A DNA stretch of 64,000 nt from Antedon mediterranea (GCF_964355755.1 NC_092678.1:14100371-14164370), one strand, 5' to 3'; positions 7,286-64,000 are shown, counted from the first letter of the stretch. Translations and numbers: made by a program. The notes: generated by a model not told the origin, from the letters alone.

Positions 7286-7971
7286 ATGGGTGCAGGTAAC
7301 GATAGCAAGACATTTACTGACGCAACCTATAGCAAATTGATTGTCGAACTAGACAGTGCACTGACAAAAACTGATGTCTGTAAACTCAAATACTTATGTC
7401 TCGATAAAACGATCGGTCTTCGCTATGAAGAATTTGATGAAATCTCTTCATTCATTGAATTAGTTTCTCGTCTTGAAGGCATGAAGAAAGTATCAAAAAT
7501 GAACTTAAACTTACTCGAAGAACTGCTGGGTAATATAGGCGAGATTGAAATGGCGTGTAGAGTAGAACGATACTTGCAGAAAAAAGCGATGCCTATCATC
7601 TCACGGTATAGGTAAGTTTAATATTGATATTTGTTTTTTTTTTTCTTTTGTTTTTGTTTTGTTTTTTTAATATGGTCAGCAGAATCTTATTATTATTATT
7701 TTATCTATTTTCATCTAGACGTATGCTTGTTGATATTGCTTCAAATATTGATAAAGAGCAAGTGAATGAATTGAAGAATCTTCTGAAAAGCTACATGCCA
7801 AGAAAACACATAAAACGGATAAACAATTCGTTTGAGCTCTTTATCGAGTTGGAACATCTAGATTTCATATCAGAAAATAACGTAAATTTGATAGGCTCAA
7901 TTGGAGATTTGTTGAACGATATGTATATAACTATCGCCATTATTGCCTATGGCGGATCACGATGTTGGTAG
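7286..7971 (+). CDS. Two-DED protein (vFLIP/cFLIP-short-like), spliced: join(7286..7611,7719..7971), ~192 aa
   Basis: Kozak CACCATGG. Donor AG|GTAAGT at 7612 and pyrimidine-tract TAG acceptor at 7718 restore ISRYRRMLVDIASNID. DED hallmarks LKYLC, FIELVSRLE, NLNLLEELL and SFELFIELEHLDFISENN. No caspase domain. Confidence 0.85.
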
Positions 7972-8267
7972 TATAGTAATAAAAAAAAAAGTTTAAAAAA
8001 TTGGTGTTTCTATGTTATCATTGCAAGTAATGACGACGACGACGACGATGAGAGATATTATATTGTACATAATATTTATTATTGAAATATGAACAACAAC
8101 AACAGAGATAAACATAATATTTTCGATGAAATGTTATAACCGGAGGAGGAGGTGGATGACGCACCACGCAGTTGGTCAGACGAGTGTATAGAGGTATTCG
8201 TTGCTGCTGCTGCTGTAGTGGTGGTGGTGGTAGGTATGTCGATGATGCACGAATAAGCATCCTGCAC

Positions 8268-9939
8268 TTAGTATAATGCCTTGTTTATGTACAGAGCGGC
8301 TATGACACCGGTTATAGAATTACTTTCTTCGTCTACCTTTCCGACAATCACTGTAGTCGCATTCTTTGTAGTTGAAACGGTGTTGAACTCGTCGGTGGGT
8401 AACTTTTCTTCTTGTATGTAACCGGAGAACTTACATCGAACGTACAGTCTATTTCTGTAAACTTCAACATACGCCCATGTATTCGTGATGTACTGTTGCG
8501 TGCTTATAATCTGAACACGAAGGCCGGAAGGTGATTTGAATATAACGTGTAGATAATTGTCAACGAGTCGCGCGTTAAAATTTGTCGTATCACTCTGATA
8601 GCTTAAAATGTTGCCGGAATTTCTTAGCGATATAAAGTAAAAAGAGACTGACGCTTTATCGATCATCAACAGCGGTGTTGTAAGCTTGACGCAGTCTGTT
8701 TGATTCAAAAAGAAACTTTTCGATGACGACGGTTTGTACCATAATTGATAGTCTATCCTGGTGTCTACGTCGCGTAAAATCATATTCTCTGGCTCAATTT
8801 TGTCAACGACGACCGGGCCGTCGTTGCAATCAGTGCGAAGATTCAAAGAATCCATCGTCCATCCGTTGATGGTGAAATCGGCGATAGTTCCATCGATCGA
8901 CGGTAAACGATTGTTTGCGCCAATTATAAACACACCATCCTGTCGGTAAGGAGACTTAAATTCAGACGGTAGCCGTTGCCATCGACTAACCACCTTCGAG
9001 TTTGAAGACAAGCGTACAAACCCCATGACCAATTCGAGAGTGTATTGATACCAAGTACCCTGCGTCATTCGTCCGATGTTTTTGATGACAGTCATACGCG
9101 ACAAAGACACAAAACTGAACTTCAATCGTCCTCCCGGTACGACAACAATTGACATTCGTACGTCGGCACTGTATTCATACAGTAGTATTTGTCGTTTTTC
9201 GTCCACCGTATCCAGTTTAATGTAGAATTCGATGACCATTGTGTTTTCTAAACGATTCAAAGTGGGAACGGTGAAGGAACGACAAGATTTCTTTTTCAAG
9301 TCAATTCTGAATGCAGACTCGAGTGGCGGTGCAGACGGTGTCGTCATGAACGTAACCTCGTCGACGACATCATCATCGTGTGTACACGTTTCGGCTATAC
9401 TCGGTTGTAATTGAAGATTGTTTACTTTCAACATTGTCACTGTACCTACAATCGACTTTAAAGTATCACTTGCGCCCACCTTAAGCGTTGTCACCACATC
9501 GTTGGGCGTAAACCTTTTCATCACTTGTGCCCATTCGTCGAAGGCCGTATTCAACGACAAGTACACTTGATTTCCTTTTCGTTTTATCAACACCTGGTAC
9601 CATTCTCGTATCGCAAGTTTTTCAATGCTGCTAAGTCGAGCCGTTTTCGACTTTGCTGTTGCCGAAGAGCTGCGGCTACGCAACTCTACGACTAAATGGC
9701 CGTCTTCTATCAAGACGGACGGTCCGAACGCTTCGGCGTTGTTCACCACGTTGGAATACATGATTTGTCCGTCTTCTTTTTTCGTGAGTTTCAACAAGAA
9801 TTTTACGTTCACCGTTTCATTGAACGTGTACAGGTCGTACGGATCGATATCGAATGCATAACAAGAATCGTTCGTCAACTTCATCTTCCAATCGCCGATC
9901 AATGAAACCGTATGATCTGCTGTCGTTGCCCGTGCGTTT

Positions 9940-9970
<31 letters not shown>

Positions 9971-11276
9971 CATCATTTTCGTTGAATGTGCAGTCTGTAA
10001 CCGTGTTGGGTTGCAGTAACCATCCGTTAAACTGAAAGGATGCTATGCAACCGGTTATCGACTGTGTTCTATTGGTACTGCCCAAATGAAATGTACCGTT
10101 CAAATCTAGGCTGGTACCGCCCATCGTATCGTTCAGCTTTGTCCAACCACCGACGTTGAAATCCGAATCAATTCTAGCCTGATTACCGATTCTGGAAACG
10201 TCGAAATGATACCAATTTTCGACAACGAGCACATGATCGCTGACAACTGTCAGCGATCCAGAACCCATGTTAAATGTAGCGTTCAATCGACCGTCGACGA
10301 TACCCAAAAACATATAATCCTCGTTGCCACTGCTGTACAGAATCTGTCCATCGGCGTCTTTGTTTAGTTTTATGTAAAACGATAAGAACACTCTGTCCTG
10401 ATAGTCGACGTCACTAGGCCATTGAAAAGTAGTAGAAACGGCGTGAGATAAGTGAAATGCACGTTCACCCTTTAGTAAATTTGCCCTGCTAACAGATTGC
10501 GTTGCAGTAGCGCCACGTTCTCGTTGCTGCTGCTGATGCTCAGTTACTTTGCACGTCTTCAGATTCTGCGGTAAGAGGCGTTTACCGTTGAACTGGAACA
10601 AAGCGAGACACGCGCTCACCGATGGGAACGTATCGGACGCACCTATGCCGTACAGATTGTTTGTGTCGAGGCGAGTGTAGTTTCCGTGTACACTCGACCA
10701 AGGTCCGAACAGACCGTTTGTTACGATTCTGGCCCACGATCCAACTCGTTTAACGGTGAAATGATACCATTTTCCAACTAAAACGTTCTCTCGACTCACC
10801 ACCGTCAACGGTTTCGAGCCAAGATCAAATGTGGCAGCCAGTCGACTGTCCAAAATTCGTATAAACATGTAATCTTTGTCACTGTTGCTGTACAGAATTT
10901 GCCCATCTCTCGATTCGTTCAATTTAATGTAAAACGACGCAGACATCTGATGTCGATAGTCGACCTTGCTTTTGTTTGCAGACAAATCAAATTCCAGTCT
11001 AGTGTTAAGGTCCACGTTGAACGTCGACTCATCGTCAAATAAAACGGTAACGTTACTTTGTCTGTCGGTTGTTATCATGTCCAGCACCTCGTATTCTCCC
11101 TCCGAGTTTGGACACGCAAACTCTCCGTTTCGTTCTATGTTAAACATACTCTCGCTTGAACATATCAGCGTTCTGTTACCGTTCGCAAGTTGACCGTATG
11201 GCTTTCCGTGACGTATCACCTTGCCATCGCAATTTAAAAAAAATAGAAACATAAACAACAACATCATCATCATCAT
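8268..11276 (-). CDS. Secreted protein with 4-5 laminin-G-like domains
   Basis: N-terminal signal peptide. Repeated units of SFYIKL..DGQILYS...DYMF..I.DGRL.A.F..GS....V.S......WYH..V.R.G, each ending ...GC.A.FQFNG. No obvious C-terminal TM. Confidence 0.85.
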
Positions 11277-11376
11277 CGTTTGTTAATTGTTAAAGACATG
11301 TCGTTTAAACGTTAATAACTTTTTTCTTTTCGTGCATTGACGTGATCCACGTGGAAAAAAAAAAGAGGAAGAGAAG

Positions 11377-12072
11377 ATGATTTCCCACCAGCGACAAATG
11401 CGTACCATATGCAATAGAATAGAAGAACGAAAGCGCCATTCGTTTGGATTATGCGTCCTGAAACCATTGAGTGAATGCGTTGCCGACAATAATGCAGCAA
11501 CGGCGGACATGGACAAAAAATGTCTAACGTTCGTAAGCAACGTCAAGTCAACTCTAGAGTTTCTGTGTCGCCAAAGTAACATACGATTAGAGCCGTTTCA
11601 GAAGGAAATGTGTAACGCTGTCATAGCTGGACGATTCAACAAATTGTTTGGAGATCGAGCGTCGAAGCTGAGAATTCCATCACTTTGCATACTCGGCGTA
11701 CTGTCCGACGAGGAGGCACAGTCGATGACCGAACCGGCTCGATGGCATCCGGCCGTACGACATTCTGCCGCTAGAAAGATAGACGAATTCAATAGAAAGT
11801 TTACGGTTGTCAGAGTGCCTCGACGTAGCGGCAAGAATCGCGCCGGTCAACTTGTGGTGGCATCTCTTCTTGTACACGAAAATAGTATATCCGTCGTTAA
11901 CTGGGCTCAGGATTTGAACTGCGCGCGTACCAATCGAGAAGACGTCATTCGTCTATTGGAGATGGCTCAACGACGATACGCGTTCACGTTCAAAGGTGTT
12001 CCGGATGGAGTACAAGTGTTGCAGTCTACGGGCACGACGGCAAACTTTAGAAGTAAAGCAAACACGGCAAAC
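11377..12072 (+). CDS. DNA packaging terminase ATPase/nuclease subunit (UL15/UL89 family), exon 1
   Basis: LEPFQK adenine-binding motif and Walker A VRVPRRSGKN (herpes PRRHGKT). Ends FRSKANTAN at a phase-0 donor AAC|GTGAGT (12073). Confidence 0.9.
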
Positions 12073-12104
12073 GTGAGTATTGTTGTTCTTATTTTTTTTG
12101 CATC

Positions 12105-13202
12105 ATGAGTCGCTCCGAGGCCTATCCAACGTTCCTTGCCGGTTTAACGTACATTTTCAAAAACACGTCCATCACCACCACCAGCCATCACGTGAAACTT
12201 GTCAATTTGATAGGCGCGTGCATTGACACAGCATCAAAAACATCGTACAAAAATAAACTGGAACGATGCAACGAGCAACAGCGACGTCATTTCGATGCGG
12301 CCGTATCTATCGGTGGTGGTGGTGGTGATGATGATGATAGCATGACGCCCAAAACGGCGTTCGTCTACTATTTTCTCGATACACTCGCTCGGCCGTATCA
12401 CAGACACATTGCTGCCTACATAACAAATTTTGATGAGTTAATGCAATGGATGCAAGCTGATCGTCGTCGCCGACGCAACAACCACCACCACCACCACCAC
12501 CACCAGACGCGAAAACGGTCATCATTTGTGGTGCCCTTAACCGACAGAATACACGATTCGGCCATTCTCAAATGCATTCTGTTCCAATTGAATCATGTGA
12601 AAAGAAAACCGTTGCATCCGATGATGAAAACAATTTTGGAGTTTACAAAGTCCAGTTGGCCGTTCAATCTAATGTTTGCCATACCGAATCGATCAAATGC
12701 ACTGGTAGAATGCGTTCTACTTTTAAACAAAACGCGCAATGAGAAATACTCTGTTTCGCTCATAACTCAAGCGCTGTCGTTATTAAGCAAAGATGAACTA
12801 TCCGAGATGAAGAGCATAATGTTTGTTCAGAAACGATGCTCTCAGATAGAATTCTTTTACGATCACAATCCAGCGGCATTTGGATCAGAATCGATTGTTT
12901 TTTGTCGCTACTGTTATATAATTTTAACTTACGTAGATCTGAAGAACAGGCCACCGACAAAAGGGATGTATATCGACGAGAATTCTCTCTTACCCACCTG
13001 TTACAACTGTCATTCGAGAAGATTGGCTTCTCTGTCGTTGGACGGTGCCGGTGTACGATTGACAGTTAAACAGCCCGATTTGGCAATGATGCGTTCGTGC
13101 CCTACTTGCAGTGAGATAACTTCTCGAACAATGTGCGTAACGTGTAAACGTATACAAGAAGAAGAAGAAGAAGAAGAAGAAGAAGACAAATTTGTTCTTT
13201 AG
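12105..13202 (+). CDS. Cys-rich Zn-finger protein, possibly UL49/ORF66-like late transcription factor
   Basis: 365-aa ORF with four C-terminal CxxC pairs (FCRYC, CYNCHS, CPTC, CVTC). Lies in terminase intron 1. The family call is by pattern only. Confidence 0.45.
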   Translation: MSRSEAYPTFLAGLTYIFKNTSITTTSHHVKLVNLIGACIDTASKTSYKNKLERCNEQQRRHFDAAVSIGGGGGDDDDSMTPKTAFVYYFLDTLARPYHRHIAAYITNFDELMQWMQADRRRRRNNHHHHHHHQTRKRSSFVVPLTDRIHDSAILKCILFQLNHVKRKPLHPMMKTILEFTKSSWPFNLMFAIPNRSNALVECVLLLNKTRNEKYSVSLITQALSLLSKDELSEMKSIMFVQKRCSQIEFFYDHNPAAFGSESIVFCRYCYIILTYVDLKNRPPTKGMYIDENSLLPTCYNCHSRRLASLSLDGAGVRLTVKQPDLAMMRSCPTCSEITSRTMCVTCKRIQEEEEEEEEEDKFVL

Positions 13203-13224: not shown

Positions 13225-13797
13225 TCAAGAAGGTACTTTTGAGCGATTAGGTGGTTCGGGCAAGTTGACAAGTTTATTACAAATCTCTCGGTCGACGAGC
13301 TCACGTGCCAATGTATTGTCATCATCATTCAATTCGTCCTCATCGCTGCTATCATCATCATCATCATCGTCCAACAATCCTCGAATTGAATCCATTGCAG
13401 TATTGTGTCTAAGTCGTCTGTTGTTAACGCTTCCTAAAAGTGAACATATCCTATTGGGATTCATGCTCTTCTCTGATTTTCTGAGAGAGTAATCTTCCTC
13501 CTTGAGTCGATCGTATTGCAGCCTGTCAAACGTTCGTAATTTAGACGAAAGTGCATCTTTCTCCAACTTTAACATGGCGTTCTGAGACGTGGTCAACATT
13601 CGTTCATAATTCGACTTTCGTCTGATCAACGACGACAGCATTTTCGCATCAATTCCATTCTTCAAACCTGACTGTATACTTTCTTGCATTTGCATCGTCT
13701 TTTCGTCGAATGTGTGTTGCATGGCGGCAATGTTGCGCATAGATTCTACTCGTTTTTGTTCAATGGCTTCGCCTCTTCTTTTTCTTTTACCAAACAT
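13225..13797 (-). CDS. Snf7/ESCRT-III-like protein
   Basis: ~190 aa, basic N-half and acidic C-half, helical. LIRRKSNYERMLTTSQNAMLKLE resembles the Snf7 alpha2 motif. DEDEL...LARELV..LPEPP tail resembles the CHMP4/6 MIM2-like region. Confidence 0.65.
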   Translation of the reverse strand: MFGKRKRRGEAIEQKRVESMRNIAAMQHTFDEKTMQMQESIQSGLKNGIDAKMLSSLIRRKSNYERMLTTSQNAMLKLEKDALSSKLRTFDRLQYDRLKEEDYSLRKSEKSMNPNRICSLLGSVNNRRLRHNTAMDSIRGLLDDDDDDDSSDEDELNDDDNTLARELVDREICNKLVNLPEPPNRSKVPS

Positions 13798-15733: not shown

Positions 15734-18700
15734 TTAGAAAGTTATCGGAGCTGGTAACTGGATCGTCTGTTGGGTCAAACATGGTGCTGCAGTGATTACC
15801 TTTGGATTGTGTCTAAGATTGTTTTCGAGAATACGTCCGACCAATTGTACATACCAATCTTTCTCCGACCAATCTATACGCATATCCTTGCCAAAAATTA
15901 CGTATCGTGCATCACCTCTACGGCGATACTTGCACGAATTGTCTGACGCAAGAAAACAAATGGGAACGCTACTTTGACTCGGTTTCACCAATGTCACGCC
16001 CGGTATCTTTCCCATGAACGAAATCACTTTCATTACAGTTCTATCGCCTTCGGTTACATCGCCTTTGCGTACGACCATAGGCGCAAAATATGTCGAGCCA
16101 CATCTGTCGGTCAATTTTGCTGCTGCTTCTACTGTTGATACATCTTCATCATCGGTGGAATTGATGTAATGTCTTGCTTGATTAATCACTTCGTTGAAAG
16201 TAAACTCTCCGGTTCCGAATAACTGATGATAGGACGTATTACTTGGACTGTAATCGACAACAAATTGTATTTTGTATTCATCATCATCCTCATTGCCACC
16301 ATTATGCTCATTATCATCATCATGTTCATCACCGTAATAGTCATGATTGTACTCAGCTTCATCGTATATCTCTTCCTCCTCCACTTTATCCTCTTCATCT
16401 TCATCATGATGTAACGTATATAACGAATGCGACGTACGTTTTTTATTGAAAAGTTTCCGTTGTAAGTTTGCAACCTGTCGTTCTCGTTCGCTGTTTGCAG
16501 TTTCAACTTTACTAGTTAAAAATTTAACATCAGACTTCAAATGTGCAATCTGTCCATCTTTATATAGATTTTGGCGCTTTTCTTGCTCCAATGACGCTTC
16601 GATATCTTTCATTCTTTCATGTAACACATCAGATCCACCATCTCCTCCTCCTCCACCGCCTCCGTCGCTTTGATTCTTTATGAATTCAGACAGTTTCAGA
16701 TAGGATTCGGATACTTTTCGCTGCGAATGTTCCAATTCCTTTTCGAGACTTTCGATGCGCTTTTGTGCAGTCAAGCTGTGATTTTTTAAAATAATTACCT
16801 GAGCGGCAAGAGAGGATATTTCTGTATTCTTGTCGTCGGATAACCGATGTGTTTCAGCTAAACTTTTTTCCTTGGCAGTAAACTTCTCTTGAAGTTTAGC
16901 GTTTTGCGTACACAACGAGTCACGAGCTTTTCGCGCTTCTTCTAGATCACGTATTGTCGACTTCAATTCTGTTTTGTGATTGCTCGACGCGTTCGCTGCC
17001 GACGTCAACTGTCGCTGTATAGCAGTGCTGTGTTCTTTTGCGACACGTTTCATCTCTGCGTCGTGTTTCTGTCCTAGTTTAGTTACTTCAGATTTCAGTT
17101 GTTTTTCGAGTCGATCACGTTCCTCGTCACGTTCCCGCGTGTGCTGTTTCTCGGCCTGTGTCAACATGTCGAGCATCTTCTTTTCAGTATCTTTCTTCGT
17201 GCTCTGTTTAGCTTCCGACACGTACTCGGCGTGTGTCTCGATTGACTTTTTCAGTCGCTCTTCTAAACGTTTTCGAGTGAAATTGTCCTCTGCAGCTTTG
17301 CTCGTCAACTCTCGAACCTGTCTTTCCAACAGGACACGATGTTGAGCTGCTTTGTCACGCTCCATCTTCACTTCTTCAACACGTTTCTTCCATTCATCTG
17401 TTTTTTCGTCGCCATCTCGTTTCAGTTGCGCTACCTTCTGTTCGGTCTCGACAAGAGTTTGTTTCAAATCATCTAGATTCTTTTCGTGTTGAACCGCATC
17501 TAGATTCTTTTCGTGTTGAACCGAGTTTTGCCTCTTGTCCTGTTCTTCAATCTCCCTTCTCATTTCGTCCAGCTTGATGGTGAACGTCGTGTTTGCGTTC
17601 ATCAGTTTATTGTTGAGTTGTTCTCTTTGCAGATGCGCCGAATCGGTGGTCTGTTGCAAGTCACGACCGAGTTTCTGTACGTTTTTCTTCTCGTTTTGCA
17701 GCTCATTGTTCAATTTTCTCAGATCGGTCAAATACGCCTGCTCTCGAGATTTTAACATGTTCTCTGCATCATGTTTTAACGAAGCAGAGTTTATTTTTTT
17801 GGCATCAAGTTGCGACGCCAAATCGTCAACATGTCGGCTCATCAACTGTTCATTTTTTTGTACGCTCGACTGATACAATCTGCTCTTTTCTTCGTACGTT
17901 TGCAAATCAGTTTCCAACTGTTGAATTCGCTGCCTGTACGTTGTCTCCGAAAGCGTGTTGGCCGTGTCCAATCTTCTGTTCAACACGCGCAATTCACCAA
18001 CTTCGTTTGTGAGTGCTTCGATGCGACGACTCGTCTGCTCGTCAACGTGTTCTTTTGACGATATCAATTCGGATTGCTTGCGCTTCAAAATCAATTCATG
18101 TGCGCGTGCTTCGTCCGTCTTTTTGTTAAGCAAGGCTTTTAGAGTGTCTGACTCGTCGACATTTTGCATTTCGGTGTCGTGAAGTTGTTGCTTCATTTCG
18201 TCCACCAAACGTTTACTGTTTCGCAGTTCGCCTTCGGTCTTGTCCAGTTTCGTTTCCAACTCTTTAATTTTTGCGTCGCTCACTCGCGTCTTTTTTTCAT
18301 TTTCTCTCGTCGACTCTGCATTCCTGGTGGCCATGGTCTTCTTGAACTCTTCGTGTTCTACTCGTTGAGTCTCGAGCGTGTTCAAAGCCGTCCGTCGTTC
18401 TTCTTCGGCTTTTGCTTTTGTCCATTGCATGACTTCAATCTGCGATTGGGATTCGGCATTAGAATCGGGCTGAGATGATATCCAATCTTCAATATCGTAG
18501 AGTTTTACGTGCATTGTACTATTGTGAGCGTTCACATCGTCCGAGATTTCACGCAATCTTTGAACGGTGTCTTCGTCCAAGATGGGCAAATCGTCGTTTG
18601 TTGAAGGTAAGATGCTGTTGGCCGTGTTCACGTAAGGAGCGAGCAGTTGACCGATGCTAGGTAAATCATCATCACCGTCACCTTCTTTTTCTTCTTCTTC

Positions 18701-26341: not shown

Positions 26342-26381
<40 letters not shown>

Positions 26382-26390
26382 TCTTCTTGA
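24855..26390 (+). CDS. Putative portal protein
   Basis: ~510 aa next to the terminase. FIRDTIRCIWIYGFVV and RPGVDGRMHSALSNLL resemble portal wing/stem motifs, followed by long helices. Inference only. Confidence 0.45.
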
Positions 26391-48759: not shown

Positions 48760-48793
<34 letters not shown>

Positions 48794-52369: not shown

Positions 52370-53293
52370 ATGATGTTGATGATGATGATGATGATGAAGA
52401 CGATGGAAAGTATCAAAGAACCGTCGCTCGAAGGACCTAATCGAGCATTCTATGTCGATCAAGCGTATCTGAGTGCCAACTTTGAAAGGGGCTCGAACGA
52501 CGTACGTGGAAAACTATATCCTCCATCGGACAATACATTGATTCAATCCGGACAGGTATTACTGGGAATATACAGTTTGACATATAATCAAACTGGATTC
52601 GTTCCGGGTCCGAACGGCATAGAAACGCCACATCACAAAGACGTAGACGATGCGGAAAGACAGCGTCTGATTAAGGAGAGTGACATGAAGAAATACATGG
52701 TACTGGGAGTCGCCGGTACAGAGCTTACAGACTGGCCGTCCAATAAACTATTTTCCGTTATCACTCAATCTACCGACTGCAAGTATATCAACACCGGCTC
52801 TCGCACAATACTCGACGGACAAATAGTTTGCGTTCGATATCCAACGCAGAGTGAATGCGACGAGCACATGGCCAGATATAGAACATTAAAATGGGTCACG
52901 TACGGTCTAAATCCGTCATCGGATTCGTCGCGAATTGACAGTATGCTCAGATACATGGCACTGAACAAAGGTACAGCAGAGGCAGCAAACAACGCACAGT
53001 TTGAGATGGCCAGAATGTCTGTTATTGCAATCTGTAAACATGTTAACAAGTTTCAAAAAAATAGGCTGATTCCTGATGATGCACATTGGCCGGAAAACGG
53101 TTACTTGGGCGAAGACGTTGCCGAAGTTTTCACCAACGATCAATCGAAAGATGATCTTGCCGATATGATGGGTCATATGTTACGTGTTGGAGACATTGCA
53201 ACAAGCAAGTTTGGCATGGCCGTGTTAGGATTCGCGTGCGGAGACACGAAACCTTGGCAATCTGGCCGAATAATATTGCAAACAAACGTTTAA
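52370..53293 (+). CDS. Putative capsid triplex subunit 2
   Basis: VLGVAGT...YINTGSRTILDGQIVCVRYP...VLGFACGDTKPWQSGRIIL resembles the beta-tulip motifs of allo-/mirusvirus triplex proteins. Directly upstream of the MCP candidate. Confidence 0.6.
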   Translation: MMLMMMMMMKTMESIKEPSLEGPNRAFYVDQAYLSANFERGSNDVRGKLYPPSDNTLIQSGQVLLGIYSLTYNQTGFVPGPNGIETPHHKDVDDAERQRLIKESDMKKYMVLGVAGTELTDWPSNKLFSVITQSTDCKYINTGSRTILDGQIVCVRYPTQSECDEHMARYRTLKWVTYGLNPSSDSSRIDSMLRYMALNKGTAEAANNAQFEMARMSVIAICKHVNKFQKNRLIPDDAHWPENGYLGEDVAEVFTNDQSKDDLADMMGHMLRVGDIATSKFGMAVLGFACGDTKPWQSGRIILQTNV

Positions 53294-55286: not shown

Positions 55287-56632
55287 ATGACGATGACGAT
55301 AGGATTCATTTAAGTCGCGTAAAAGAGATTCTCTTTGATCGTGTGGTACTCAGATTATTGTCGCCACGAATCTACGCCGTCACCAAAACGAATTGGAAAC
55401 CGAAAGTGCACGAAGAGAACGTGACGTTTTGTCACTTTTTATCCGATCACACCAACGTCAACTGTAGACTGATCGGCAATGATGGAACAACGAGCACTTT
55501 TTTCACCACCACCACTCCAAACTGTGTGAATGAAGCGAAAGATGTCACGACACATTTTCCGTATTTTTCGACCGATTGCCCGAGAACGGCACGCGAGTTG
55601 TTTGTGAACAGAAACTATTCGCATCGAGTTGAAACGGTGGTTTCAATGCCGCTGACAAACGGCGTAAAAGCAAGCACGTTGCTGTTTCTGTCAATGTTGC
55701 AGAATCCCACCACCACCAAGATGTTGACAGAGGCAAATGTGTTTCCGAACACAACCTTTTTACTCTTTCGAATGCCCATACAGAAAACGTGCAGCGCCAT
55801 CATGTGCCGTTCGGGACCTAATTATCGATACATGTTTTTGGGTAACGGAAAAATCGGCACGATCGAAACGAACGCCTGTTCCTACAAGACGACGTCACGC
55901 ATCGAAATTACGTACGTGGACACTAGTCCAATCGACAATACACGCGTTCAAAACAATCTAGCGGGAATAGGCTACATGCGCGGCATGGGAAGTTCGATAA
56001 TGAATTTTAAACAGACACACACAAGACAAGGACACGGAGATTTTGTAGCCGTTCCCATTCCGTCCTCGTTCAATCCAGAGTCTACTGACATAATGCAGTT
56101 GAACGGTCGAGCATCTGTCGGCGACGGTAATTCCAACCAGTCTCTGGATCTACTCGACGAAATCACAAACAAGTTCACCACCAATCCATACGCCACGGTC
56201 GGAGCGTCAGAGGCGCACATAACACTCGGTCTTCATCATCCGTTGTGGATGAACGACACCAGCAGAACGACAGGTGTTCACACCACGTTTCTATCCACCA
56301 GAAATCCACCGACACAGTACAAGGCCGACGTGGACGTGTTCATGAAACCCATCAGTCATCACGGTTTACAGGAAGACAGTAACGTTGCAATGCAAGGTCG
56401 ACAGTATTACGACAGTTCACAATTTGAGCCGTGCGCCTTCAAGTCTGTCAACAAGGGATTTTACGGAGAACACGAACACAGTTCGTCTTCGTTTCGTAAT
56501 CTATTGGACGTTTCCACGGCTAGATTTGATGAAGGCATGGTGCTCGTCGATCCCACAACCTGTCTGCCCACAGGTCGTGGAACGGACGATCAACTCATCA
56601 AAACGGGTCTTAGAAAGCGATATAGACCTTAG
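53360..56632 (+). CDS. Putative major capsid protein (HK97 fold with tower insertion)
   Basis: ~1090 aa. N-terminal beta hairpin, RGGAIVISAE strand, spine-like helix and PPDTIIVHP. Size and adjacency to the triplex gene fit. Confidence 0.65.
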
Positions 56633-57292
56633 GAAATTATACCTTTTGTATCCTGCGATCCATTGAAATTCTTTCTCGTCAAAATCCTCGTAGCATTCAC
56701 TGTGCATCTGACCGCCTTTGCATCGAATCAAGACGACTGCCGATGGACGTGTGGATAAAGCGTACGTGTTGGCCATAAACAAAGCGCCCAATTGTGCCTG
56801 AATCTTTGCTCTATCCAAAAGACATGGTTTGAAGCCGACACTACGTTTTCGAGGAGCAAGATCACGTTCTTTTATCAGCTGGGAAACGGTCATGGACGTG
56901 TTTTTAAACTCAACCACCACCGCATCTCCACTCGTACGATTCTGCATCACAAGATCTATGATTGCCACAGACGCATCACCATCGTTATCTACGGTGGCGT
57001 TGGTGACAGCACACTGCGCCTTCATAAACTCCAAGTCTAACTTTTGCAACTCTTTATTCACTTCCTCGTTGGCCATGCAACAAACTTGAGCGTCCATCTG
57101 ACGACCGACTTCCATGGCATTCTCACTGGAAAGCGAAGCTGACCCAATGTGACGCGCTCGCTTTATTTTCCATCGTTTGTCAACGTACAGTCTGTTGCAA
57201 ATCTGTTTTGTTACCGAAATCAGTTTCTTACCGTCAACAGTATACGAGCGACCAGCGCCTCTGCTTATCCTTACACGCCGATTACTTAACAT
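56501..57292 (-). CDS. PD-(D/E)XK nuclease (Cas4 / lambda-exonuclease-like)
   Basis: ISVTKQI, GRQMD, IIDLV..VVVEFKNT and AKIQAQLG motifs. Confidence 0.75.
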   Translation of the reverse strand: MLSNRRVRISRGAGRSYTVDGKKLISVTKQICNRLYVDKRWKIKRARHIGSASLSSENAMEVGRQMDAQVCCMANEEVNKELQKLDLEFMKAQCAVTNATVDNDGDASVAIIDLVMQNRTSGDAVVVEFKNTSMTVSQLIKERDLAPRKRSVGFKPCLLDRAKIQAQLGALFMANTYALSTRPSAVVLIRCKGGQMHSECYEDFDEKEFQWIAGYKRYNFLRSISLSKTRFDELIVRSTTCGQTGCGIDEHHAFIKSSRGNVQ

Positions 57293-58208: not shown

Positions 58209-58266
58209 TATTTAAGTGTATTTGTCTTTAAAAAAAAAAAACAAACAAAAACATTACAAAAAAAAA

Positions 58267-60285
58267 ATGTCAGGTGGACACAAAAGATATCTCACACAGG
58301 CGACGGGCTATCCGTTGGCCGTGAAATCGTCACGATTACGATACGGTGATGTCGCGCGACCGTCTATCGGTGGATACGGACCGTGTTATCCATCCATCAG
58401 CGACAAACATTTGAAAGTGTACCGAGTTGGCAACGATCAGAGAGCCGAATTGCCAATTCTAGAAGATAAAGTTAAAGAGGAGACAATGATGCCGATGCGC
58501 GAATTTATACGTTCACTCGATCACGTGCTGGAAAAAGACTGTATCACAATTAGTCAAATGGTGAGTGTGGCGAAAAATCGCCCAATTGGTGCTGGAATCG
58601 CAGACACGCTATTCAAACTGGTATCTGAACATCAGCAGCGATACACCGTGTACACGCTACGATCGACAGCAAAGATGAAAGCGGCCAATCTGAGAGGAAA
58701 ACTATCGGACGTCGGACACGATCCAAGTTCTTTAGACAAATTCAGTTCAGCAGCCGCTTTCGGCCGTGTTGAATCGGTGGCCATCGCGTCCACTCGAATG
58801 GCCAAACAATACTGGCGTATGCTCAACGAGTACATGGTCAAGAACGGCAAGGCGTTTCCTCTGGCCAGTGCTCGAATGAATCAGATGACGGTGTTGATGT
58901 TGTCGCGGTTGTGCTGCACAATGAAATGTCATATTTTCAAGAGCGAACCAAAGGCCATTGTTCTCATTTCCGAAAACCTCATGTCCACAATAGACTCGGT
59001 GCTCGAAGATCAAGGGCACGGTAACATGAAATTCAGTACATTGACTCGAACGGTGCTAAAACGTTTAGGAATCGGTGGTGGTGGTGGTGGTGGTATCATG
59101 AGATATCTGAGAGAATACGACTGGTATCAGAGATCAGCACGGCTGGTAAGAATCGGTGCCGAAATTTTCGAGAAAGAAATTTGCGCAGATGATCAACCGC
59201 CCGAGCGTCGAACGGTGATTGCAGCCGGCGTAGACGAAGATTCACAACTGCTCGTCATGTTACGTCTGCGTTGTCGGCTCAGAAAGTGCAATCATAGATT
59301 CAAAAACGACTACAATCGTACCAAGCACATGGAACGTGAACACCTTTACACGACGGCCGACATCAAATTAGCCACCGACATTGACACGTCCGACACGAGT
59401 AGACGGTACGAGCTGGTGAACGAACATGCAGTACTTGCACAGTATCCCTTTCTGGAAGATTTATCAGCCGGTGAAATTCATCCGGATTTTGTGAAACGAT
59501 CAAAAGAATTCTGTGAGATACACATTGAAAATCTGTTTCGATTGAACATCATCGAAAACGAATTGAAAATGTGGAATAAAATGAAAGTATTGGACGAGGC
59601 GTGCCGTGCTCAGAAACAATGGCGTTTAGAAACGATGCAAGAGGCCAAACAATTTATCGTTGACGAAGATCGGTACAACTCAATCATGGCCACGTCTACA
59701 ACCATCAGTCGAAGAAGAATCGACGAGAACAGAACGGACACAAACTTTATATTGAACATGAAAAAAACAGTGGACGAGAATCCGATGGTGAAACTAATGC
59801 GAATGAACGAGACCGATTTCAATCATACGGTTGAAAATAACGACGGAGTGGACATGAGCAGCTTAACCAACAAAACGTTGGCATACGACGGCGAGGCATT
59901 ACAGAGCAGCGCCAGACGTCAAATGCTGAACGCAGTTAGATTATCAAGTCGTCAATTGGACCCCGAAGGTGAGATTGCAATTCGAAACGTTACAGAACGA
60001 CTGAAAGCCACCACCGATGCCGTTCACAACAACAGCGATGAAGAAGAAGAAGAAGAAGACAAGGATGATGATGATGAAAAAGAAGACCATCGTTATTGCG
60101 AATTGCGTAGAGGTCGTGGCAACGACGACGACGATGACGACGATAACGAGTCTCATAGTTTAGTGCTCCTGAAACCAACCGAAATCCGTGTGCATAGACT
60201 GGACGCGTTCAAAGAGATTAAAAACATCGTTGACGGTGTCATGGACACTCACAATTTGATCAAGCCACCGCCGCCACCGCCATGA
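58267..60285 (+). CDS. Large protein with one C2H2 zinc finger
   Basis: CRLRKCNHRFKNDYNRTKHMEREH. Confidence 0.75.
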   Translation: MSGGHKRYLTQATGYPLAVKSSRLRYGDVARPSIGGYGPCYPSISDKHLKVYRVGNDQRAELPILEDKVKEETMMPMREFIRSLDHVLEKDCITISQMVSVAKNRPIGAGIADTLFKLVSEHQQRYTVYTLRSTAKMKAANLRGKLSDVGHDPSSLDKFSSAAAFGRVESVAIASTRMAKQYWRMLNEYMVKNGKAFPLASARMNQMTVLMLSRLCCTMKCHIFKSEPKAIVLISENLMSTIDSVLEDQGHGNMKFSTLTRTVLKRLGIGGGGGGGIMRYLREYDWYQRSARLVRIGAEIFEKEICADDQPPERRTVIAAGVDEDSQLLVMLRLRCRLRKCNHRFKNDYNRTKHMEREHLYTTADIKLATDIDTSDTSRRYELVNEHAVLAQYPFLEDLSAGEIHPDFVKRSKEFCEIHIENLFRLNIIENELKMWNKMKVLDEACRAQKQWRLETMQEAKQFIVDEDRYNSIMATSTTISRRRIDENRTDTNFILNMKKTVDENPMVKLMRMNETDFNHTVENNDGVDMSSLTNKTLAYDGEALQSSARRQMLNAVRLSSRQLDPEGEIAIRNVTERLKATTDAVHNNSDEEEEEEDKDDDDEKEDHRYCELRRGRGNDDDDDDDNESHSLVLLKPTEIRVHRLDAFKEIKNIVDGVMDTHNLIKPPPPPP

Positions 60286-61286
60286 ACAATATAGTGAATT
60301 TTACAAGAACAAAGTTTCGACTCAGTGACGCCGGTCAACGAGCCACCTTCAAATACTGCTTTGGTCAATTGCAAAACGTTGCACGACTCGACAAAGAAGA
60401 TGAACGTCGAAAAGCTGTTGTGGCCATATTTGCCGATGTCTTCAAATTCTTCAACTCTAATCAATCTGGTCAACTCAACAGACTGTATGCGAAACGAAAG
60501 TACTCTCGTTTCGATCCGTTCCGAAGAGTTGTCGAGGTGAACGAGTCGGATGCCTACGAAACACCATCCGACAGACAAGCAATTGTAGATATACCACCGT
60601 CCGGTCGGCTATCAATTACCATGGAATACAACGAATCTGACGATAACTCCTCGTCGTACGCGAAAGAAGTTGTGGAATTACAGCGTGAAACCTGTGCCAT
60701 ATGCATGTACGAATATGGATGTCATTCTCTCGAAGCTTTGCCTTGTGCTACAATTGCAAGCGGAGGAGACTTTACAGCATGCAGCACAGTCGATTGGAAC
60801 GGTGCGCACATATTTCACATGTCCTGCATTCGAGAGATGATACGAAATCGTGCCAAAGACACGAGAGCCAACCGAGTTGAATGTCCCACGTGTCGTGTCA
60901 CCATTCACGATGCGGACGCGTTGAACGTGATTAGAATGAAACTTGTTCAAGCAAATTTCGAGGGAGACGTTGACGATTATGATGACGACGTGTTCAATGC
61001 AAAAACTGGACATCATGTTGCCGTAACGTGCCAACAGGATTTAGATCGATTAAAGGACTCTGTGAAGAAATTGTACAAACAAAAGGATATGAGTATAAAT
61101 TGCTCGAGAACTAACGCCAACAACAAACCGTACGAGCTCGGTCTAGTAAACTGGTACTCGGACACGTCTGAAGATGTCACCGAAGATGTTGATTTGTTTA
61201 TTGCTAAACTCGCCACAGAGAATAAGATATCGGATAATCATGAAGCTCAACTACCGTCGTCATTTACTCCAAAAATCATATCTTAA
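60282..61286 (+). CDS. RING-H2 finger protein (E3 ligase candidate)
   Basis: CAIC...C...HIFHMSCI...CPTCR; ATGA overlap with the upstream gene. Confidence 0.8.
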   Translation: MNNIVNFTRTKFRLSDAGQRATFKYCFGQLQNVARLDKEDERRKAVVAIFADVFKFFNSNQSGQLNRLYAKRKYSRFDPFRRVVEVNESDAYETPSDRQAIVDIPPSGRLSITMEYNESDDNSSSYAKEVVELQRETCAICMYEYGCHSLEALPCATIASGGDFTACSTVDWNGAHIFHMSCIREMIRNRAKDTRANRVECPTCRVTIHDADALNVIRMKLVQANFEGDVDDYDDDVFNAKTGHHVAVTCQQDLDRLKDSVKKLYKQKDMSINCSRTNANNKPYELGLVNWYSDTSEDVTEDVDLFIAKLATENKISDNHEAQLPSSFTPKIIS

Positions 61287-61968: not shown

Positions 61969-62553
61969 ATGAGAGTGAACGTTATGCAAAGTAATATATC
62001 GAGTCTTGATTTGAGAATTCTACTTGCATCGTGTCCAGATGGCACGCATTGTTGCATCGACTGTTCTCGTCTTGTAGGTGTGGTACGATTCTCTTGTGAA
62101 AGTCAATGCGACTGTGCAATAGCAAAGCTGGGTATACCCTACGATCATCAATCGTTTGGAAACAAAACACATCCGAGCATAGCATTGGTGGCAAAACGCA
62201 CAGCTCCGTTTTGTTCATCGGTCGTGATCGATGATGACGTGGCGGTGTTTATGGACGTCAAACACATAGACTGGTTCACCGTTCAACTGTTGTGCATGTC
62301 TTTCGACATGGAAGCTGTCGTCGATCTGAAAGAGAAAACGTTAACCGTTCAAAACGTTATAATAGAGGAAGATGATAAAACAGATTTGGCACATTTGAAA
62401 ACAGAAAGATACACCTTAGCGATGCGCTACATTAAGAGCAAGGAGAAGAAGAAGAATAAGAAGAAGAGAAATACTAAAAAGAAGAACCGATTGTGGTATG
62501 AAACGTTTCGTTGTCGGATACGTGGTGACAGAAGTGACAGCGGTGGTCGTTGA
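61969..62553 (+). CDS. Hypothetical Cys-rich protein with basic tail
   Basis: ATG ORF overlapping the protease start. Confidence 0.55.
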   Translation: MRVNVMQSNISSLDLRILLASCPDGTHCCIDCSRLVGVVRFSCESQCDCAIAKLGIPYDHQSFGNKTHPSIALVAKRTAPFCSSVVIDDDVAVFMDVKHIDWFTVQLLCMSFDMEAVVDLKEKTLTVQNVIIEEDDKTDLAHLKTERYTLAMRYIKSKEKKKNKKKRNTKKKNRLWYETFRCRIRGDRSDSGGR

Positions 62554-63730
62554 CAAAGAATATGATGTAACGCCTGACGTGATAGATCGATGGAAACTCA
62601 TCGGATTGCCGGTTCGATGGAAACACGTGAAAGCACGTAAGAACGGTGTTGGAATACATTCATCGGGAGGCATCGGTACGGTTCTAGATTGGTGGCGAGA
62701 CAATACACATCCAGACGCACACGAAGAAGGAACAGGTGCAGTGGCCGTTCTTATAGAGATCACGAATGAACCGTTTTTACGCAGTCCATTCTCACAGCAT
62801 CTAAACTGTCTGTCACTCAGCTACAGACGCGCCGATCACACTAAATGCGTTGAAGTTTCTCTCGTGGAGATTGGTCAACGAAAAGGTACAGTGGCCGTGT
62901 TCTGTAGTGACGAGCGCAGCGCCAGACGTACAGCAGAAAAAAGATTTGGATATAAACGTCGTCGCAAAGTAAAAGAGGAAAAAGAAGGTGCAATGTCTGT
63001 GAAGAAGGAAGAAAATTTGCTGGCGGAATTGGAAGTAGTGAAAGATATGGCGAACACGTTACCACCGGAAAAACTCGATGCTCTACTCTCGCTGTTGAAA
63101 GACAAGGAAGAGAGCAACGTAAAAGACAAACAAAAAATCAAGGAAGAGGTGGATCTCTTGCGTGAACAATTCGGTGACTTTATACTCCGTTTGAGAGAAA
63201 CGATGGAGGGAAGACTCGGACCTGAATACAATAAGCAAATGAAAGACTTTAAAGCGGTGACGGATCGATGGGACACGGATCCTGGTATTGACGTTGCCGC
63301 CTCGTTTAAGGCCGCCAATGATCTCATCGATGATGCCACCTTGAACATGGCAAACAAGACCGAATTGGGTGATTTGCTCAAGCGCCGTTTTCCAAAAATG
63401 GAAGATCAAGTGAACGTTACAAACGCTACATCATTGAGCGAAATACTAGACATTCACAAGCGATTGTTGACAAAAAACAACGAGAATACGATTAACGTCT
63501 GCAACGATTACTTCAAAACAGTCGAACAACGAATCAAAAATAATACAATGAACGATCATGGTAATAGAAAACGTAAACACAAAACGAATGAACCGCCAGA
63601 GAAAAAACTTAAAGCCACCGCCGCCGCCGCCGCAGCAGGAGCCACCACCACAGACGATGAATTTGAAAAACGTATAAACAGTCTCGAGAAACTTACAGAA
63701 ATGTTGGGCAAACAACTGCTAAACTGCTAA
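62498..63730 (+). CDS. Capsid maturation protease (assemblin fold) fused to scaffold
   Basis: LPVRWKH (His), GIGTV, CLSLSY (Ser) and VEVSLVEIGQRKGTVAVF (oxyanion loop, cf. HVALCSxGRRxGTxAVY). Coiled-coil C-half ending in an amphipathic helix. Confidence 0.85.
   Translation: MKRFVVGYVVTEVTAVVVDKEYDVTPDVIDRWKLIGLPVRWKHVKARKNGVGIHSSGGIGTVLDWWRDNTHPDAHEEGTGAVAVLIEITNEPFLRSPFSQHLNCLSLSYRRADHTKCVEVSLVEIGQRKGTVAVFCSDERSARRTAEKRFGYKRRRKVKEEKEGAMSVKKEENLLAELEVVKDMANTLPPEKLDALLSLLKDKEESNVKDKQKIKEEVDLLREQFGDFILRLRETMEGRLGPEYNKQMKDFKAVTDRWDTDPGIDVAASFKAANDLIDDATLNMANKTELGDLLKRRFPKMEDQVNVTNATSLSEILDIHKRLLTKNNENTINVCNDYFKTVEQRIKNNTMNDHGNRKRKHKTNEPPEKKLKATAAAAAAGATTTDDEFEKRINSLEKLTEMLGKQLLNC
62951..62956 (+). 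promoter_or_regulatory. Candidate internal TATA box for a nested scaffold ORF (62993..63730)
   Basis: TATAAA begins 42 nt upstream of in-frame ATG 62993, just after the protease domain. Confidence 0.5.
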
Positions 63731-63795
63731 AAAAAAAATAAAATTCAATAATAAATAAACAACTTGTTTGTTTTTTTCTTTGTGGTTTTTTATTC

Positions 63796-64000
63796 TCACA
63801 ATACATTGCAATTACACGAGTAACTTGCGTCCATGTCTTCTACACCGAGTGTAACATTGTCCAACAGTCTACGTCGGCCAATAAACGATGGTGGGTTCAC
63901 GACTTCATCACCGGTACGCAGACAACGTCTAAGTCTGTCTCGTTTGATTTTGTTCTCGTCAATACACAAATCAGCTTCTATCACTGTCAAAACAATGGAA
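63796..64000 (-). CDS. 3' end of a gene entering from beyond the window
   Basis: Open frame to the window edge, convergent with the protease gene across an A/T-rich polyA region. Confidence 0.5.
   Translation of the reverse strand, partial: SIVLTVIEADLCIDENKIKRDRLRRCLRTGDEVVNPPSFIGRRRLLDNVTLGVEDMDASYSCNCNVL

Follow-up and report, generated by a model that had tools for sequence, protein, structure and literature searches.

The 64-kb window (the whole stretch of DNA analysed here) is likely to contain a partial herpes-type virus genome, which likely falls into an unnamed deep branch of the Herpesvirales, is probably integrated into an invertebrate germ line and is largely intact. Its placement in this order is likely and rests on the predicted capsid fold, on size and on gene layout; the lineage is possibly one that has already been glimpsed in starfish and ribbon-worm genomes. 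The initial annotation had described a largely intact, probably endogenous herpes-like member of the Duplodnaviria that fits no recognised family. The major capsid protein (MCP) fold, the protease, the terminase and the ORF array support the viral identity; an internal MITE, flanking repeats and sequencing runs under three organism labels support the endogenous state, and no named relative was found in the sequence searches made. Among 50 chosen ORFs, four matched herpes-specific Pfam families, every match being under its cut-off, and no match was obtained for MCP, triplex, glycoprotein or tegument families. Polymerase and helicase genes are absent from the window, which covers part of the genome. 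The features are summarized in Table 1.

Table 1. Features of the window, with positions counted from its first letter
Feature	Position	Strand	Basis
AT-rich left flank, animal-type repeats	1..7114		GC 31-36%; tandem duplication; short high-copy element with its end near 7114
Two-exon, two-DED gene, vFLIP-like architecture	7286..7971 (exons 7286-7611, 7719-7971)	+	PF01335 E 1e-12 and 5.5e-13
Secreted multi-laminin-G protein, first ORF with virus-like composition	8268..11276	-	PF02210 E 1.4e-33, 4 stretches
Terminase ATPase subunit, predicted exon 1 (Walker A)	11377..12072	+	PF02500 E 0.011, under cut-off; donor GTGAGT
Protein with four CxxC motifs, function unknown, terminase intron 1	12105..13202	+	Motifs
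Second Snf7-like candidate	13225..13797	-	RKKxYE-like and LPEPP motifs
1682-aa protein, long coiled-coil-like region, terminase intron 1	15734..20782	-	Sequence
UL92-like late transcription factor candidate, antisense, terminase intron 1, start beside exon 2	21084..21980	-	PF03048
Terminase, predicted exon 2 (Walker B, Zn-type motif, nuclease domain start)	21999..22565	+	Splice sites, open frame, motifs
Terminase, predicted exon 3 (nuclease domain)	23456..23989	+	PF02499 E 0.0012, under cut-off, profile 187-335 of 349
218-aa protein, C-terminal membrane anchor, adjoins portal candidate; candidate nuclear-egress subunit 2 (UL34-like)	24070..24726	-	Position
Portal protein candidate	24855..26390	+	Atlas features
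Triplex-sized candidate of the initial annotation	28272..29258	+	Size
NEMO CC2-LZ-like coiled coil, ubiquitin-binding motif	29337..29978	+	PF16516 E 9.2e-7, under cut-off
Non-autonomous Tc1/mariner-type MITE, 1322 bp, intergenic	31520..32841		Perfect 24-bp terminal inverted repeats flanked by TA at either end
Reading frame with one in-frame stop	34061..34999	-	Frame inspection
PrimPol/AEP-type primase candidate, 389 aa	35482..36651	+	Motifs only
FEN1/XPG-like 5' nuclease candidate	39023..40522	+	PF03159 XRN_N E 0.0056-0.0077; acidic motifs
Conserved helical protein, Snf7/ESCRT-III-like candidate	42708..43496	+	Homologs P0019 (50%) and in contig L001
Secreted multi-Ig protein	47241..49667	+	PF13927 E 4.5e-19
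Conserved protein directly 5' of MCP, triplex candidate	52370..53293	+	Position; 31% identity to L001 gene, same position
MCP, predicted HK97 floor and herpes-type tower, 1090 aa	53360..56632	+	AlphaFold2, Foldseek, VIA
PD-(D/E)xK nuclease, alkaline-exonuclease-like candidate	56501..57292	-	D..E.K and QxQ motifs
RING-finger protein	60282..61286	+	Weak RING Pfam matches, E 0.001-0.02
194-aa conserved protein adjoining protease, candidate nuclear-egress subunit 1 (UL31-like)	61969..62553	+	Position
Capsid maturation protease, C-terminal scaffold-like tail	62498..63730	+	PF25720, PF00716

Predicted major capsid protein and its relatives

The AlphaFold2 model of the candidate MCP is of low confidence (pLDDT 46.7; residues 1-152 and 817-1090 below 50). 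When this model was compared with BFVD by Foldseek, the best five matches were alloherpesvirus MCPs or unnamed proteins (E 1e-8 to 6e-6) and the abalone herpesvirus MCP followed at rank 9 (E 2.6e-3, 10% identity); against the PDB, every row was a herpesvirus capsid. With VIA the best 39 rows were herpesvirus capsids, 36 of them at Z 15.0-17.9 (rmsd 4.4-8.8, 401-530 residues aligned). The capsids of EBV, HCMV and HSV aligned at Z 15-18, and phage HK97 capsids ranked after the herpesvirus capsids with Z-values of at most 5.2. Residues 225-825 of the model were aligned to herpesvirus residues 225-1069 and thus the tower is included in the match; a region of about 600 residues of this low-confidence model aligns with the herpes tower. 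In the structural alignments the identity was 9-10% to alloherpesvirus MCPs and about 10% to herpesvirus capsids. These data suggest that the protein folds like a herpesvirus MCP with a herpes-sized tower. It had been listed as candidate MCP before, and the fold search, in which a non-HK97 fold would have spoken against the herpes-like reading, matched herpesvirus MCPs instead. Mirusvirus MCP towers have been described as "substantially smaller" than those of herpesviruses (PMC10132985). Set against this published description, the modeled tower does not appear to fit the mirusvirus definition; the fold-library rows held no mirusvirus MCP.

Sequence searches yielded 11 unnamed capsid relatives (22-63% identity), and six MCP homologs were full-length (38-61%). 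In a search of 1.84 billion representatives, 11 of the 12 matches were relatives and the twelfth was an Ig-repeat protein; one of 22 cluster members among those listed carried a name ("hypothetical protein"). No named sequence match was found for the three proteins searched, and none to named MCPs. A syntenic contig (L001) has kept three gene blocks, with 7 of the 50 ORFs matched at E 5e-6 or better. The 11 capsid relatives together with this contig point to a wider family. This family may be the same deep lineage as the printed starfish and ribbon-worm regions and the herpes-like contigs of a peanut worm and a sandworm, a serious possibility that we nevertheless rate below even chances. The available text on the worm viruses describes terminases distinct from those of malacoherpesviruses (PMC6950620), which fits such a common origin; that on starfish and ribbon worm describes divergent Herpesvirales regions in these genomes (10.1101/2025.04.19.649669). 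As far as these texts go, both reports rely on polymerase or terminase trees and say nothing of a capsid family, an exon layout or a gene order, which speaks against equating the lineages. A shared lineage would fit our preferred explanation but would lower the novelty of the region.

Packaging, maturation and candidate egress genes

The terminase gene is predicted to be spliced from three exons and to encode an ATPase-nuclease. All three exons are open, in phase and a multiple of three in length; both donors are within the only 17 perfect GTRAGT sites of the plus strand, and the acceptors rank among the best 1.3% and 8% of the 1270 YAG sites by pyrimidine content. The sequence contains PRRSGK and MGWMDE, which we take to be the Walker A and Walker B motifs, and IAVDP, V..E.N and RDD, which are presumably of RNase-H type. 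Exon 2 alone had no match in database searches. The in-phase open exons and consensus splice sites agree with the three exons proposed initially. Split terminases are common to alloherpesviruses and mirusviruses, in the latter also near Walker B (PMC12768974), and the alloherpesvirus SalHV-1 has a three-exon terminase (PMC13030845). The UL92-like ORF in the first intron matched PF03048 at E 3.8e-4 with 20.8 bits, 0.2 under the cut-off of 21. The same layout, with a terminase of two exons, is found for GP92 of guinea pig cytomegalovirus in the available text (PMC3939465), and match and layout together sustain the beta/gamma-like UL92 gene that had been placed in this intron. Two other proteins encoded in the intron, the CxxC and the coiled-coil-like protein, had no family match in profile searches.

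The protease matched PF25720 (Herpes_ORF28) at E 2.2e-7 as a whole and at E 3.2e-8 with its N-terminal part, and its H, S and GQR motifs are kept in L001. Thus, the assemblin-type protease of the initial annotation was recovered, the match of the N-terminal part to assemblin S21 (PF00716) being weak (E 0.14). The Atlas features of the portal candidate were 0.86-0.88 similar to portal clusters and its best family matches agreed in family or clan (10 of 10); the proposed portal gene keeps its likeness to these clusters but, with a similarity under the 0.9 mark, is a lead only. The candidate triplex gene was not confirmed: in profile searches the triplex-sized ORF had no family and no match to the conserved protein 5' of the MCP, and neither candidate had a family match. 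In alloherpesviruses the NEC1 gene adjoins the protease and egress subunit 2 adjoins the portal (PMC13030845), and two of our ORFs are positional candidates for this pair. The first is 32% identical to an L001 gene in equivalent position and showed a weak RHD match (E 0.003), the second has a hydrophobic segment at 196; no match was found for these candidates in sequence searches.

The three-exon terminase, the BFVD matches, the Herpes_ORF28-type protease and the positions of the egress genes would all suit a very divergent, Teratorn-like member of the Alloherpesviridae that reached an invertebrate or resides in a low-GC vertebrate genome. We regard this as quite improbable since the MCP identity is 9-10%, no named MCP is among the sequence matches, UL92 is nowhere mentioned in the SalHV-1 paper (PMC13030845) and no transposase or integrase family was matched among the 50 ORFs, the right end lying outside the window. 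From the alloherpesvirus core set of 12-13 genes, the protease alone matched an alloherpes-type model in this partial genome.

Left boundary and probable endogenous state

Tightly packed ORFs extend from about 8.0 kb to the end of the window (88% coding). The 50 ORFs make up 87.8% of 8268-63730 (89.9% without the MITE), which bears out the more than 55 kb of packed ORFs noted before. The GC content is 31-36% at 1-8000 and mostly 40-50% beyond about 8 kb, and trinucleotide tracts of at least 4 units number 1 before 7990 vs 65 after. The virus had been taken to start at 7286; the dense array is real, but virus-like composition begins near 8.0 kb and 7286-7971 lies on the low-GC side. The two-DED gene located there has in-phase consensus splice sites and AATAAA after its stop; we liken it to vFLIP, and it may be of host origin or virus-captured. 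The frame with an in-frame stop is possibly the sole broken gene noticed. CpG observed/expected was 1.3-1.7 in the viral part, which gives no hint of prolonged methylation-driven decay; the flank was not depleted either.

The left flank is likely host DNA. It carries a 1.56-kb tandem duplication (1990-5142) with copies 99.2% alike, in runs X1 and X5 the summed contig depth, which is not a copy number, exceeded 10,000 in the bins that cover 6448-7695, and many loose contig ends were seen at 7036 and 7109-7114. The duplication and the high-copy element confirm, for the left side, the animal-type repeats that had been reported beside the virus. The MITE described inside the virus was also found, with its inverted repeats and TA target duplication (2 matches vs 0 in 100 shuffles); its Tc1/mariner assignment is our reading of the TA duplication.

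The sequence was present in 9 runs from 4 studies under 3 organism labels. In the well-covered runs X1 and X5, 57 of 13,980 letters (0.4%) and 279 of 11,696 letters (2.4%), respectively, differed from the window in the pieces among those listed; X1 may be the source sample. Eight X1 contigs among those listed lie at 7857-23247 (depth 91-107), a flank contig at 6346-6683 has a depth of 95.7, and one contig (7857-9931) crosses the GC step. An X5 contig extends 186 letters to each side of 7265, which implies that the high-copy repeat is joined to the DED gene. No contig among those listed spans the whole left junction, which is bridged in pieces. As side observations, X9 (a run of organism A from a different study, perhaps of RNA) gave short viral contigs of depth 2-5 and a deep host repeat, and in X8 the virus was high relative to the repeat.

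Taken together, the internal MITE, the left animal-type repeats and the holders under three organism labels make it probable that the sequence is endogenous. A free or episomal virus of the sequenced animal, mis-joined to host repeats during assembly, would explain why nearly all genes are open, why CpG is not depleted and why the junction runs through repeats; the 99.2% duplication could be an assembly artefact. This scenario is improbable when the MITE with its target duplication is considered, as are the viral contig depth near that of the flank in X1 and X5, the flank pieces 5309-6219 covered under two organism labels, and contigs that link the DED gene to the laminin-G gene and, by implication, to the repeat.

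Candidate replication genes and the proposed mirusvirus share

The primase candidate contains DxD, SxH, D-x3-Y and RxLRLP motifs and C-terminal Cys, which we assign to the PrimPol/AEP family; it had no match in database searches. The acidic motifs of the 5' nuclease candidate are, in our reading, FEN1/XPG-like. The D..E.K and QxQ motifs of the second nuclease candidate, which we take to be PD-(D/E)xK and alkaline-exonuclease-like, are common with its L001 homolog (29% identity), and its PDB search gave no match. The first Snf7-like candidate matched PF03357 at E 0.0047 with a trimmed core only, and three other proteins had no match. Foldseek gave no match at E 0.001, although ESCRT-III-family chains (CdvB2, Vipp1/PspA, CdvB) were frequent among the non-significant rows; by VIA, helical bundles of a generic kind, BAR domains among them, ranked above ESCRT-III. 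The motifs of the second candidate we likened to Snf7, with no Snf7 match at E up to 10. The Snf7 gene claimed initially stays an unconfirmed candidate, with a weak Pfam match and no significant fold match. The short PrimPol-type primase had been called mirus/NCLDV-like; its motifs are present, but alloherpesviruses have a PrimPol-like primase too (SalHV-1 ORF73; PMC13030845).

Snf7 and RING proteins are core functions of mirusviruses (PMC12768974), and among the traits of the gene mix Snf7 alone would be mirus-specific. An animal virus that is a mirusvirus, or a genuine intermediate between mirusviruses and herpesviruses, could draw on the weak Snf7 match, the ESCRT-III-family chains and the terminase split near Walker B. 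The herpes-sized tower, the VIA ranking and the UL92-like gene in betaherpesvirus position render it very unlikely. Thus, the herpesvirus/mirusvirus mixture is weakly supported in the form originally suggested, as the primase type and the split terminase are also alloherpesvirus traits. A combination inside the Herpesvirales, alloherpes-like architecture with a beta/gamma-like UL92 position, is better supported.

Proposed mechanism and comparison with known systems

By analogy with herpesvirus biology, replication would take place in the nucleus. The MCP, the protease-scaffold, the portal and probably triplex proteins would assemble into a procapsid. Host splicing would join the three exons of the terminase, which would package the DNA, and the UL92-like factor may help host RNA polymerase II with late gene transcription. 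Capsids might exit the nucleus via the putative egress pair, perhaps aided by a viral ESCRT-III-like protein. The NEMO-like protein is likely an immune modulator; together with the DED, RING, Ig and laminin-G proteins it may act on pathways of host death, of NF-kB and of the surface.

A more far-reaching reading, which we consider rather unlikely, is a fourth family-level lineage of the Herpesvirales, which would occur widely in invertebrates as intact insertions in the germ line. It would have kept the three-exon terminase and egress layout (alloherpes-type), the UL92 gene in the terminase intron (beta/gamma-type) and Snf7 (mirusvirus-type) as ancestral traits. The insertion would be older than the separation of two host species and would have stayed intact. 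If true, one virus would unite traits that are now scattered across groups and would bridge mirusviruses and vertebrate herpesviruses.

Our preferred assignment, a deep herpes-type branch, shares with the Beta- and Gammaherpesvirinae the antisense UL92 gene in the terminase intron with its start near exon 2, the herpes capsid alignment and a nearby two-DED gene that we take to be vFLIP-like, whereas their terminase has two exons vs three predicted here. Mirusviricota resemble the region in a towered HK97 MCP, a protease and a split terminase, in the portal (a candidate here) and possibly in Snf7 and RING. The region differs by its herpes-sized tower, its animal-type genes and flanks and the lack of TBP, histone, heliorhodopsin, Snf2 and RNA polymerase families among the 50 ORFs of this partial genome; some mirusvirus orders lack several of these as well (PMC12768974). 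According to the available texts, the starfish and ribbon-worm (10.1101/2025.04.19.649669) and peanut worm and sandworm viruses (PMC6950620) are also deep, come from non-mollusc invertebrates and are in part chromosome-embedded; they were placed by polymerase or terminase and are compared here by description only. Malacoherpesviridae and the lancelet BelcheriHV-1 share the invertebrate host type that is likely here. As is probable for the region, BelcheriHV-1 is integrated and repeat-flanked; it has about 45% GC and is less polymorphic than its host, and 27 of its 62 ORFs are homologous to malacoherpesviruses (PMC12373286); in the region, the abalone herpesvirus MCP was a weak fold match and no named sequence matched. 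Compared with the Alloherpesviridae, the MCP is shorter (1090 vs 1224-1439 aa) and about 10% identical, and the region has a UL92-like gene, a much shorter primase, no transposase seen and a likely invertebrate host. Alloherpesviridae (SalHV-1, ranid, cyprinid and sturgeon herpesviruses) are like the region in the herpes-type MCP, the ORF28-type protease-scaffold, the PrimPol-like primase, the three terminase exons and possibly the egress genes beside protease and portal, and the alloherpes-like Teratorn (PMC5822658) is endogenous, the state that we propose here.

Capsid protein and its relatives

The major capsid protein (MCP) has six full-length homologs sharing 38-61% identity. When 1.84 billion representatives were searched exhaustively, 12 matches emerged; 11 of them were relatives, with identities down to 22-26%, and the remaining one was an Ig-repeat protein. 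Among the MCP cluster members listed, one of 22 carried a name, which was 'hypothetical protein'. We modeled the protein with AlphaFold2 on 17 sequences and obtained a low-confidence structure (pLDDT 46.7). When this model was compared by Foldseek with BFVD, a library of predicted viral structures, alloherpes MCPs ranked first (E 1.1e-8 to 5.6e-6, 9-10% identity), orthoherpes MCPs followed and an abalone herpesvirus MCP reached E 2.6e-3. All PDB rows listed for the model were herpes capsids. In structure alignments with VIA, 36 herpes entries scored Z 15.0-17.9 (401-530 residues aligned) and phage HK97 capsids Z 5.2 or less. The initial annotation had tied its reading to an HK97-type fold of this ORF, and the low-confidence model bears this out through its match to herpes capsids. 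Residues 225-825 of the model were placed on herpes residues 225-1069, and thus the modeled tower is herpes-sized; mirusvirus towers have been described as 'substantially smaller' (PMC10132985).

A quick, midpoint-rooted tree of 17 rows (homologs P0014 and P0018 left out) separated at least three subgroups; it contains no named reference, carries a long-branch warning and informs on family structure only. P0015-P0017 and P0021 form a distant capsid subgroup (22-26% identity to the window protein) on contigs of up to 52 kb. P0009 and P0010 are two MCP halves, each on a 9316-bp contig, and likely represent one split or intron-bearing gene of a close relative. Atlas gave no usable MCP match, and IMG/VR scans with MCP and primase returned no relative. 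Against PDB sequences, nothing significant was obtained with the MCP profile, the terminase exons or the protease, primase, Snf7-like, 61969-like, nuclease and FEN1-like queries.

Gene order was compared with L001 (JAAUXV010236395.1), a contig of mostly 53-61% GC that encodes the homolog P0002. It was matched by eight of the 50 window ORFs at E 0.01 or better; seven matches are convincing and the eighth (32 aa, E 0.009) is likely due to chance. Three blocks are kept in changed order, which are 61969-protease, 52370-MCP-nuclease and 41777-42708 (ORFs named by start coordinate). At 1660-3414 of this contig, a BTB-BACK-kelch gene adjoins the viral block, and past this gene, over bases 1-1500, GC falls from ~60% to 38-45%, possibly marking another host-virus junction.

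Gene organization of the viral region

We chose 50 ORFs, which together occupy 87.8% of 8268-63730 (89.9% without the MITE), so that the gene-dense array described initially was borne out. Core genes are open apart from a single frame with an in-frame stop, and CpG is not depleted. Pfam cut-offs were passed by three of the 50 ORFs (DED, laminin G, Ig), and four had herpes-specific matches below cut-off (DNA_pack_N, DNA_pack_C, UL92, Herpes_ORF28). PHROGs (0 of 42) and NCBIfam (0 of 21) yielded no match, and searches of the window with Rfam and for tRNAs (ARAGORN) gave no match. From ~8000 to the window end, GC is mostly 40-50%. Since GC stays at 31-36% over bases 1 to ~8000, a stretch that also holds repeats, a virus start at 7286 was not retained as settled fact. 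Trinucleotide tracts number one before 7990 and 65 after it; such microsatellites are unusually dense inside coding sequence at 8000-64000 and yield poly-D, -E, -H, -S and -G runs.

Features of the window
Feature	Position	Description
Tandem duplication	1990-5142	1.56 kb, 99.2% identity, internal 305-bp repeats; pieces presumably a tRNA-like SINE (ARAGORN: none); recent duplication or assembly artefact
High-copy element	6829-7114	Short, adjoining the DED gene on its upstream side; numerous loose contig ends in four of four runs
Terminase exons	11377-12072, 21999-22565, 23456-23989	Predicted; three, open, in phase
ORF in terminase intron 2	22343-23236	297 aa; overlaps exon 2 antisense by ~220 bases
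Portal candidate	24855-26390	
Small ORF	31230-31514	51-bp tandem repeats; stops just short of the MITE
MITE	31520-32841	1322 bp, between genes; 24-bp terminal inverted repeats, TA duplication
Paralogous pair	45872-47131, 50118-51107	Uncharacterised proteins, 20% identity, E 7e-7
MCP	53360-56632	1090 aa
Intergenic stretch	61287-61968	682 bp, 26% GC, within the virus; may be a host insertion or an origin

Packaging genes and egress candidates

The + strand has 17 perfect GTRAGT sites, both terminase donors among them; for pyrimidine content, the two acceptors score within the top 1.3% and 8% of the 1270 YAG sites. Intron 1 sits eight residues ahead of Walker B, a position that we take to match the HSV register exactly. 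Terminases of mirus-, allo- and orthoherpesviruses are also reported to be split near Walker B (PMC12768974). The predicted exon count equals that of Alloherpesviridae, for which three terminase exons are described (PMC13030845), whereas beta- and gammaherpesviruses have two. Exon 2 matched none of 2454 candidates among longer proteins, which is weak evidence, and exon 3 found no match in phages. In the protease, an ORF28/assemblin domain is followed by a scaffold-like tail. The portal assignment is a lead (Atlas 0.86-0.88), and profile comparison of the triplex candidates 52370 and 28272 gave no match.

In alloherpesviruses, nuclear-egress subunit 1 adjoins the protease and the membrane-anchored subunit 2 adjoins the portal (PMC13030845). 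By analogy, 61969, a neighbour of the protease in L001 as well as in the window, and 24070, which has a C-terminal hydrophobic segment and adjoins the portal candidate, are leads as positional candidates for subunits 1 and 2. Their profiles did not match each other.

UL92, primase and Snf7 candidates

The UL92-like gene, scoring 0.2 bits under its Pfam cut-off, lies antisense in terminase intron 1 with its start adjoining exon 2. The initial placement in a terminase intron was upheld; GP92 of guinea pig cytomegalovirus occupies the same position (PMC3939465), and UL92 function is described in PMC10458407. The primase candidate was identified by motifs only. Its PrimPol type had been read as a mirusvirus or NCLDV sign, but the alloherpes primase also best matches PrimPol (PMC13030845), so this trait is not a mirusvirus marker and the reading was dropped as settled fact.

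Snf7 is regarded as a mirusvirus core function (PMC12768974). The Snf7-like candidate 42708 is conserved in the family and matched PF03357 (E 0.0047) only once trimmed to its core; its two homologs gave no PF03357 match, nor did ORF 13225. Its model is all-helical. Foldseek returned nothing at E 0.001, with ESCRT-III-family chains frequent among the rows, and VIA favours generic bundles.

Evidence for an endogenous state

Bases 52000-60000 occur in nine sequencing runs from four studies under three organism labels, and no RNA run was among those listed. Four runs were compared with 5200-23900. X1, which may be the source sample, differs from the window at 57 of 13,980 letters, and X5 (organism B, separate study) at 279 of 11,696; X5 additionally covers pieces of the flank. 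The eight X1 contigs listed have depths of 91-107, and the flank contig 6346-6683, at 95.7, resembles the viral contigs; these are contig depths, not copy numbers. One X1 contig spans 7857-9931, crossing the GC step. An X5 contig reaches 186 letters each side of 7265, which implies that the DED gene and the high-copy repeat are joined. Little or no X5 cover was seen at 15184-15807 and 22672-23900, and X8 and X9 cover is patchy, holes that prove nothing; both latter runs are shallow and do not match a simple single-copy picture. Stretches 7905-8758 and 13545-14333 are missing from X1 contigs of roughly half depth (50), a hint that a second allele or copy carries deletions.

The viral sequence is probably endogenous. 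For the endogenous, largely intact element proposed initially speak the MITE, confirmed inside the viral part, the runs under three organism labels and the open core genes, but among the pieces listed none spans the whole left junction.

Discussion

To our knowledge, Herpesvirales comprises three named families, with invertebrate members almost exclusively from molluscs and lancelets. We consider it rather probable that the window holds a herpes-type virus of an unnamed deep Herpesvirales branch, probably integrated in an invertebrate germ line and largely intact. The invertebrate host type is suggested by the AT-rich flank, the style of the repeats and the animal-type domains. The element would work like a herpesvirus, and three of the Herpesvirales features tested were found. 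Beside the observed anatomy, splice signals and runs containing the sequence, and a capsid fold predicted to be of herpes type, herpesvirus biology suggests that replication would be nuclear, using host polymerase II and the spliceosome. Procapsids would assemble upon the protease-scaffold, the terminase would package DNA via the portal, and egress would pass through a UL31/UL34-like pair. DED, NEMO-like, RING, Ig and laminin-G proteins may modulate the host. No integration route is visible within the window.

Seeing a separate lineage gene by gene, together with its capsid relatives, of which there are 11 or more and all unnamed, offers a handle on herpesvirus origins. Should the UL92-like gene be homologous, its intron position included, viral late-transcription machinery regarded as restricted to beta- and gammaherpesviruses would be ancestral. 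The transition from mirusviruses to herpesviruses would become testable if the candidates for egress and Snf7 are borne out. That intact and nearly identical copies occur under two or more host labels poses the question of how herpes genomes of this size could reach germ lines, and stay in them, without telomere repeats or a visible transposase.

Among the papers listed by our literature search, none described the window's capsid family or gene layout; the supplements on starfish and ribbon-worm regions may bear on its identity. PMC10827195 left animals out. Precedents are Teratorn (PMC5822658), the lancelet BelcheriHV-1 (PMC12373286), herpes-like contigs of worms (PMC6950620) and the starfish and ribbon-worm regions (10.1101/2025.04.19.649669). 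Membership in Alloherpesviridae or Malacoherpesviridae is not supported by sequence. The initial view that the gene set fits no family stands insofar as no named relative was found in our searches, but its mirusvirus part, already weakened by the primase, is not supported as stated: Mirusviricota have a small MCP tower, whereas that of the window is predicted to be herpes-sized.
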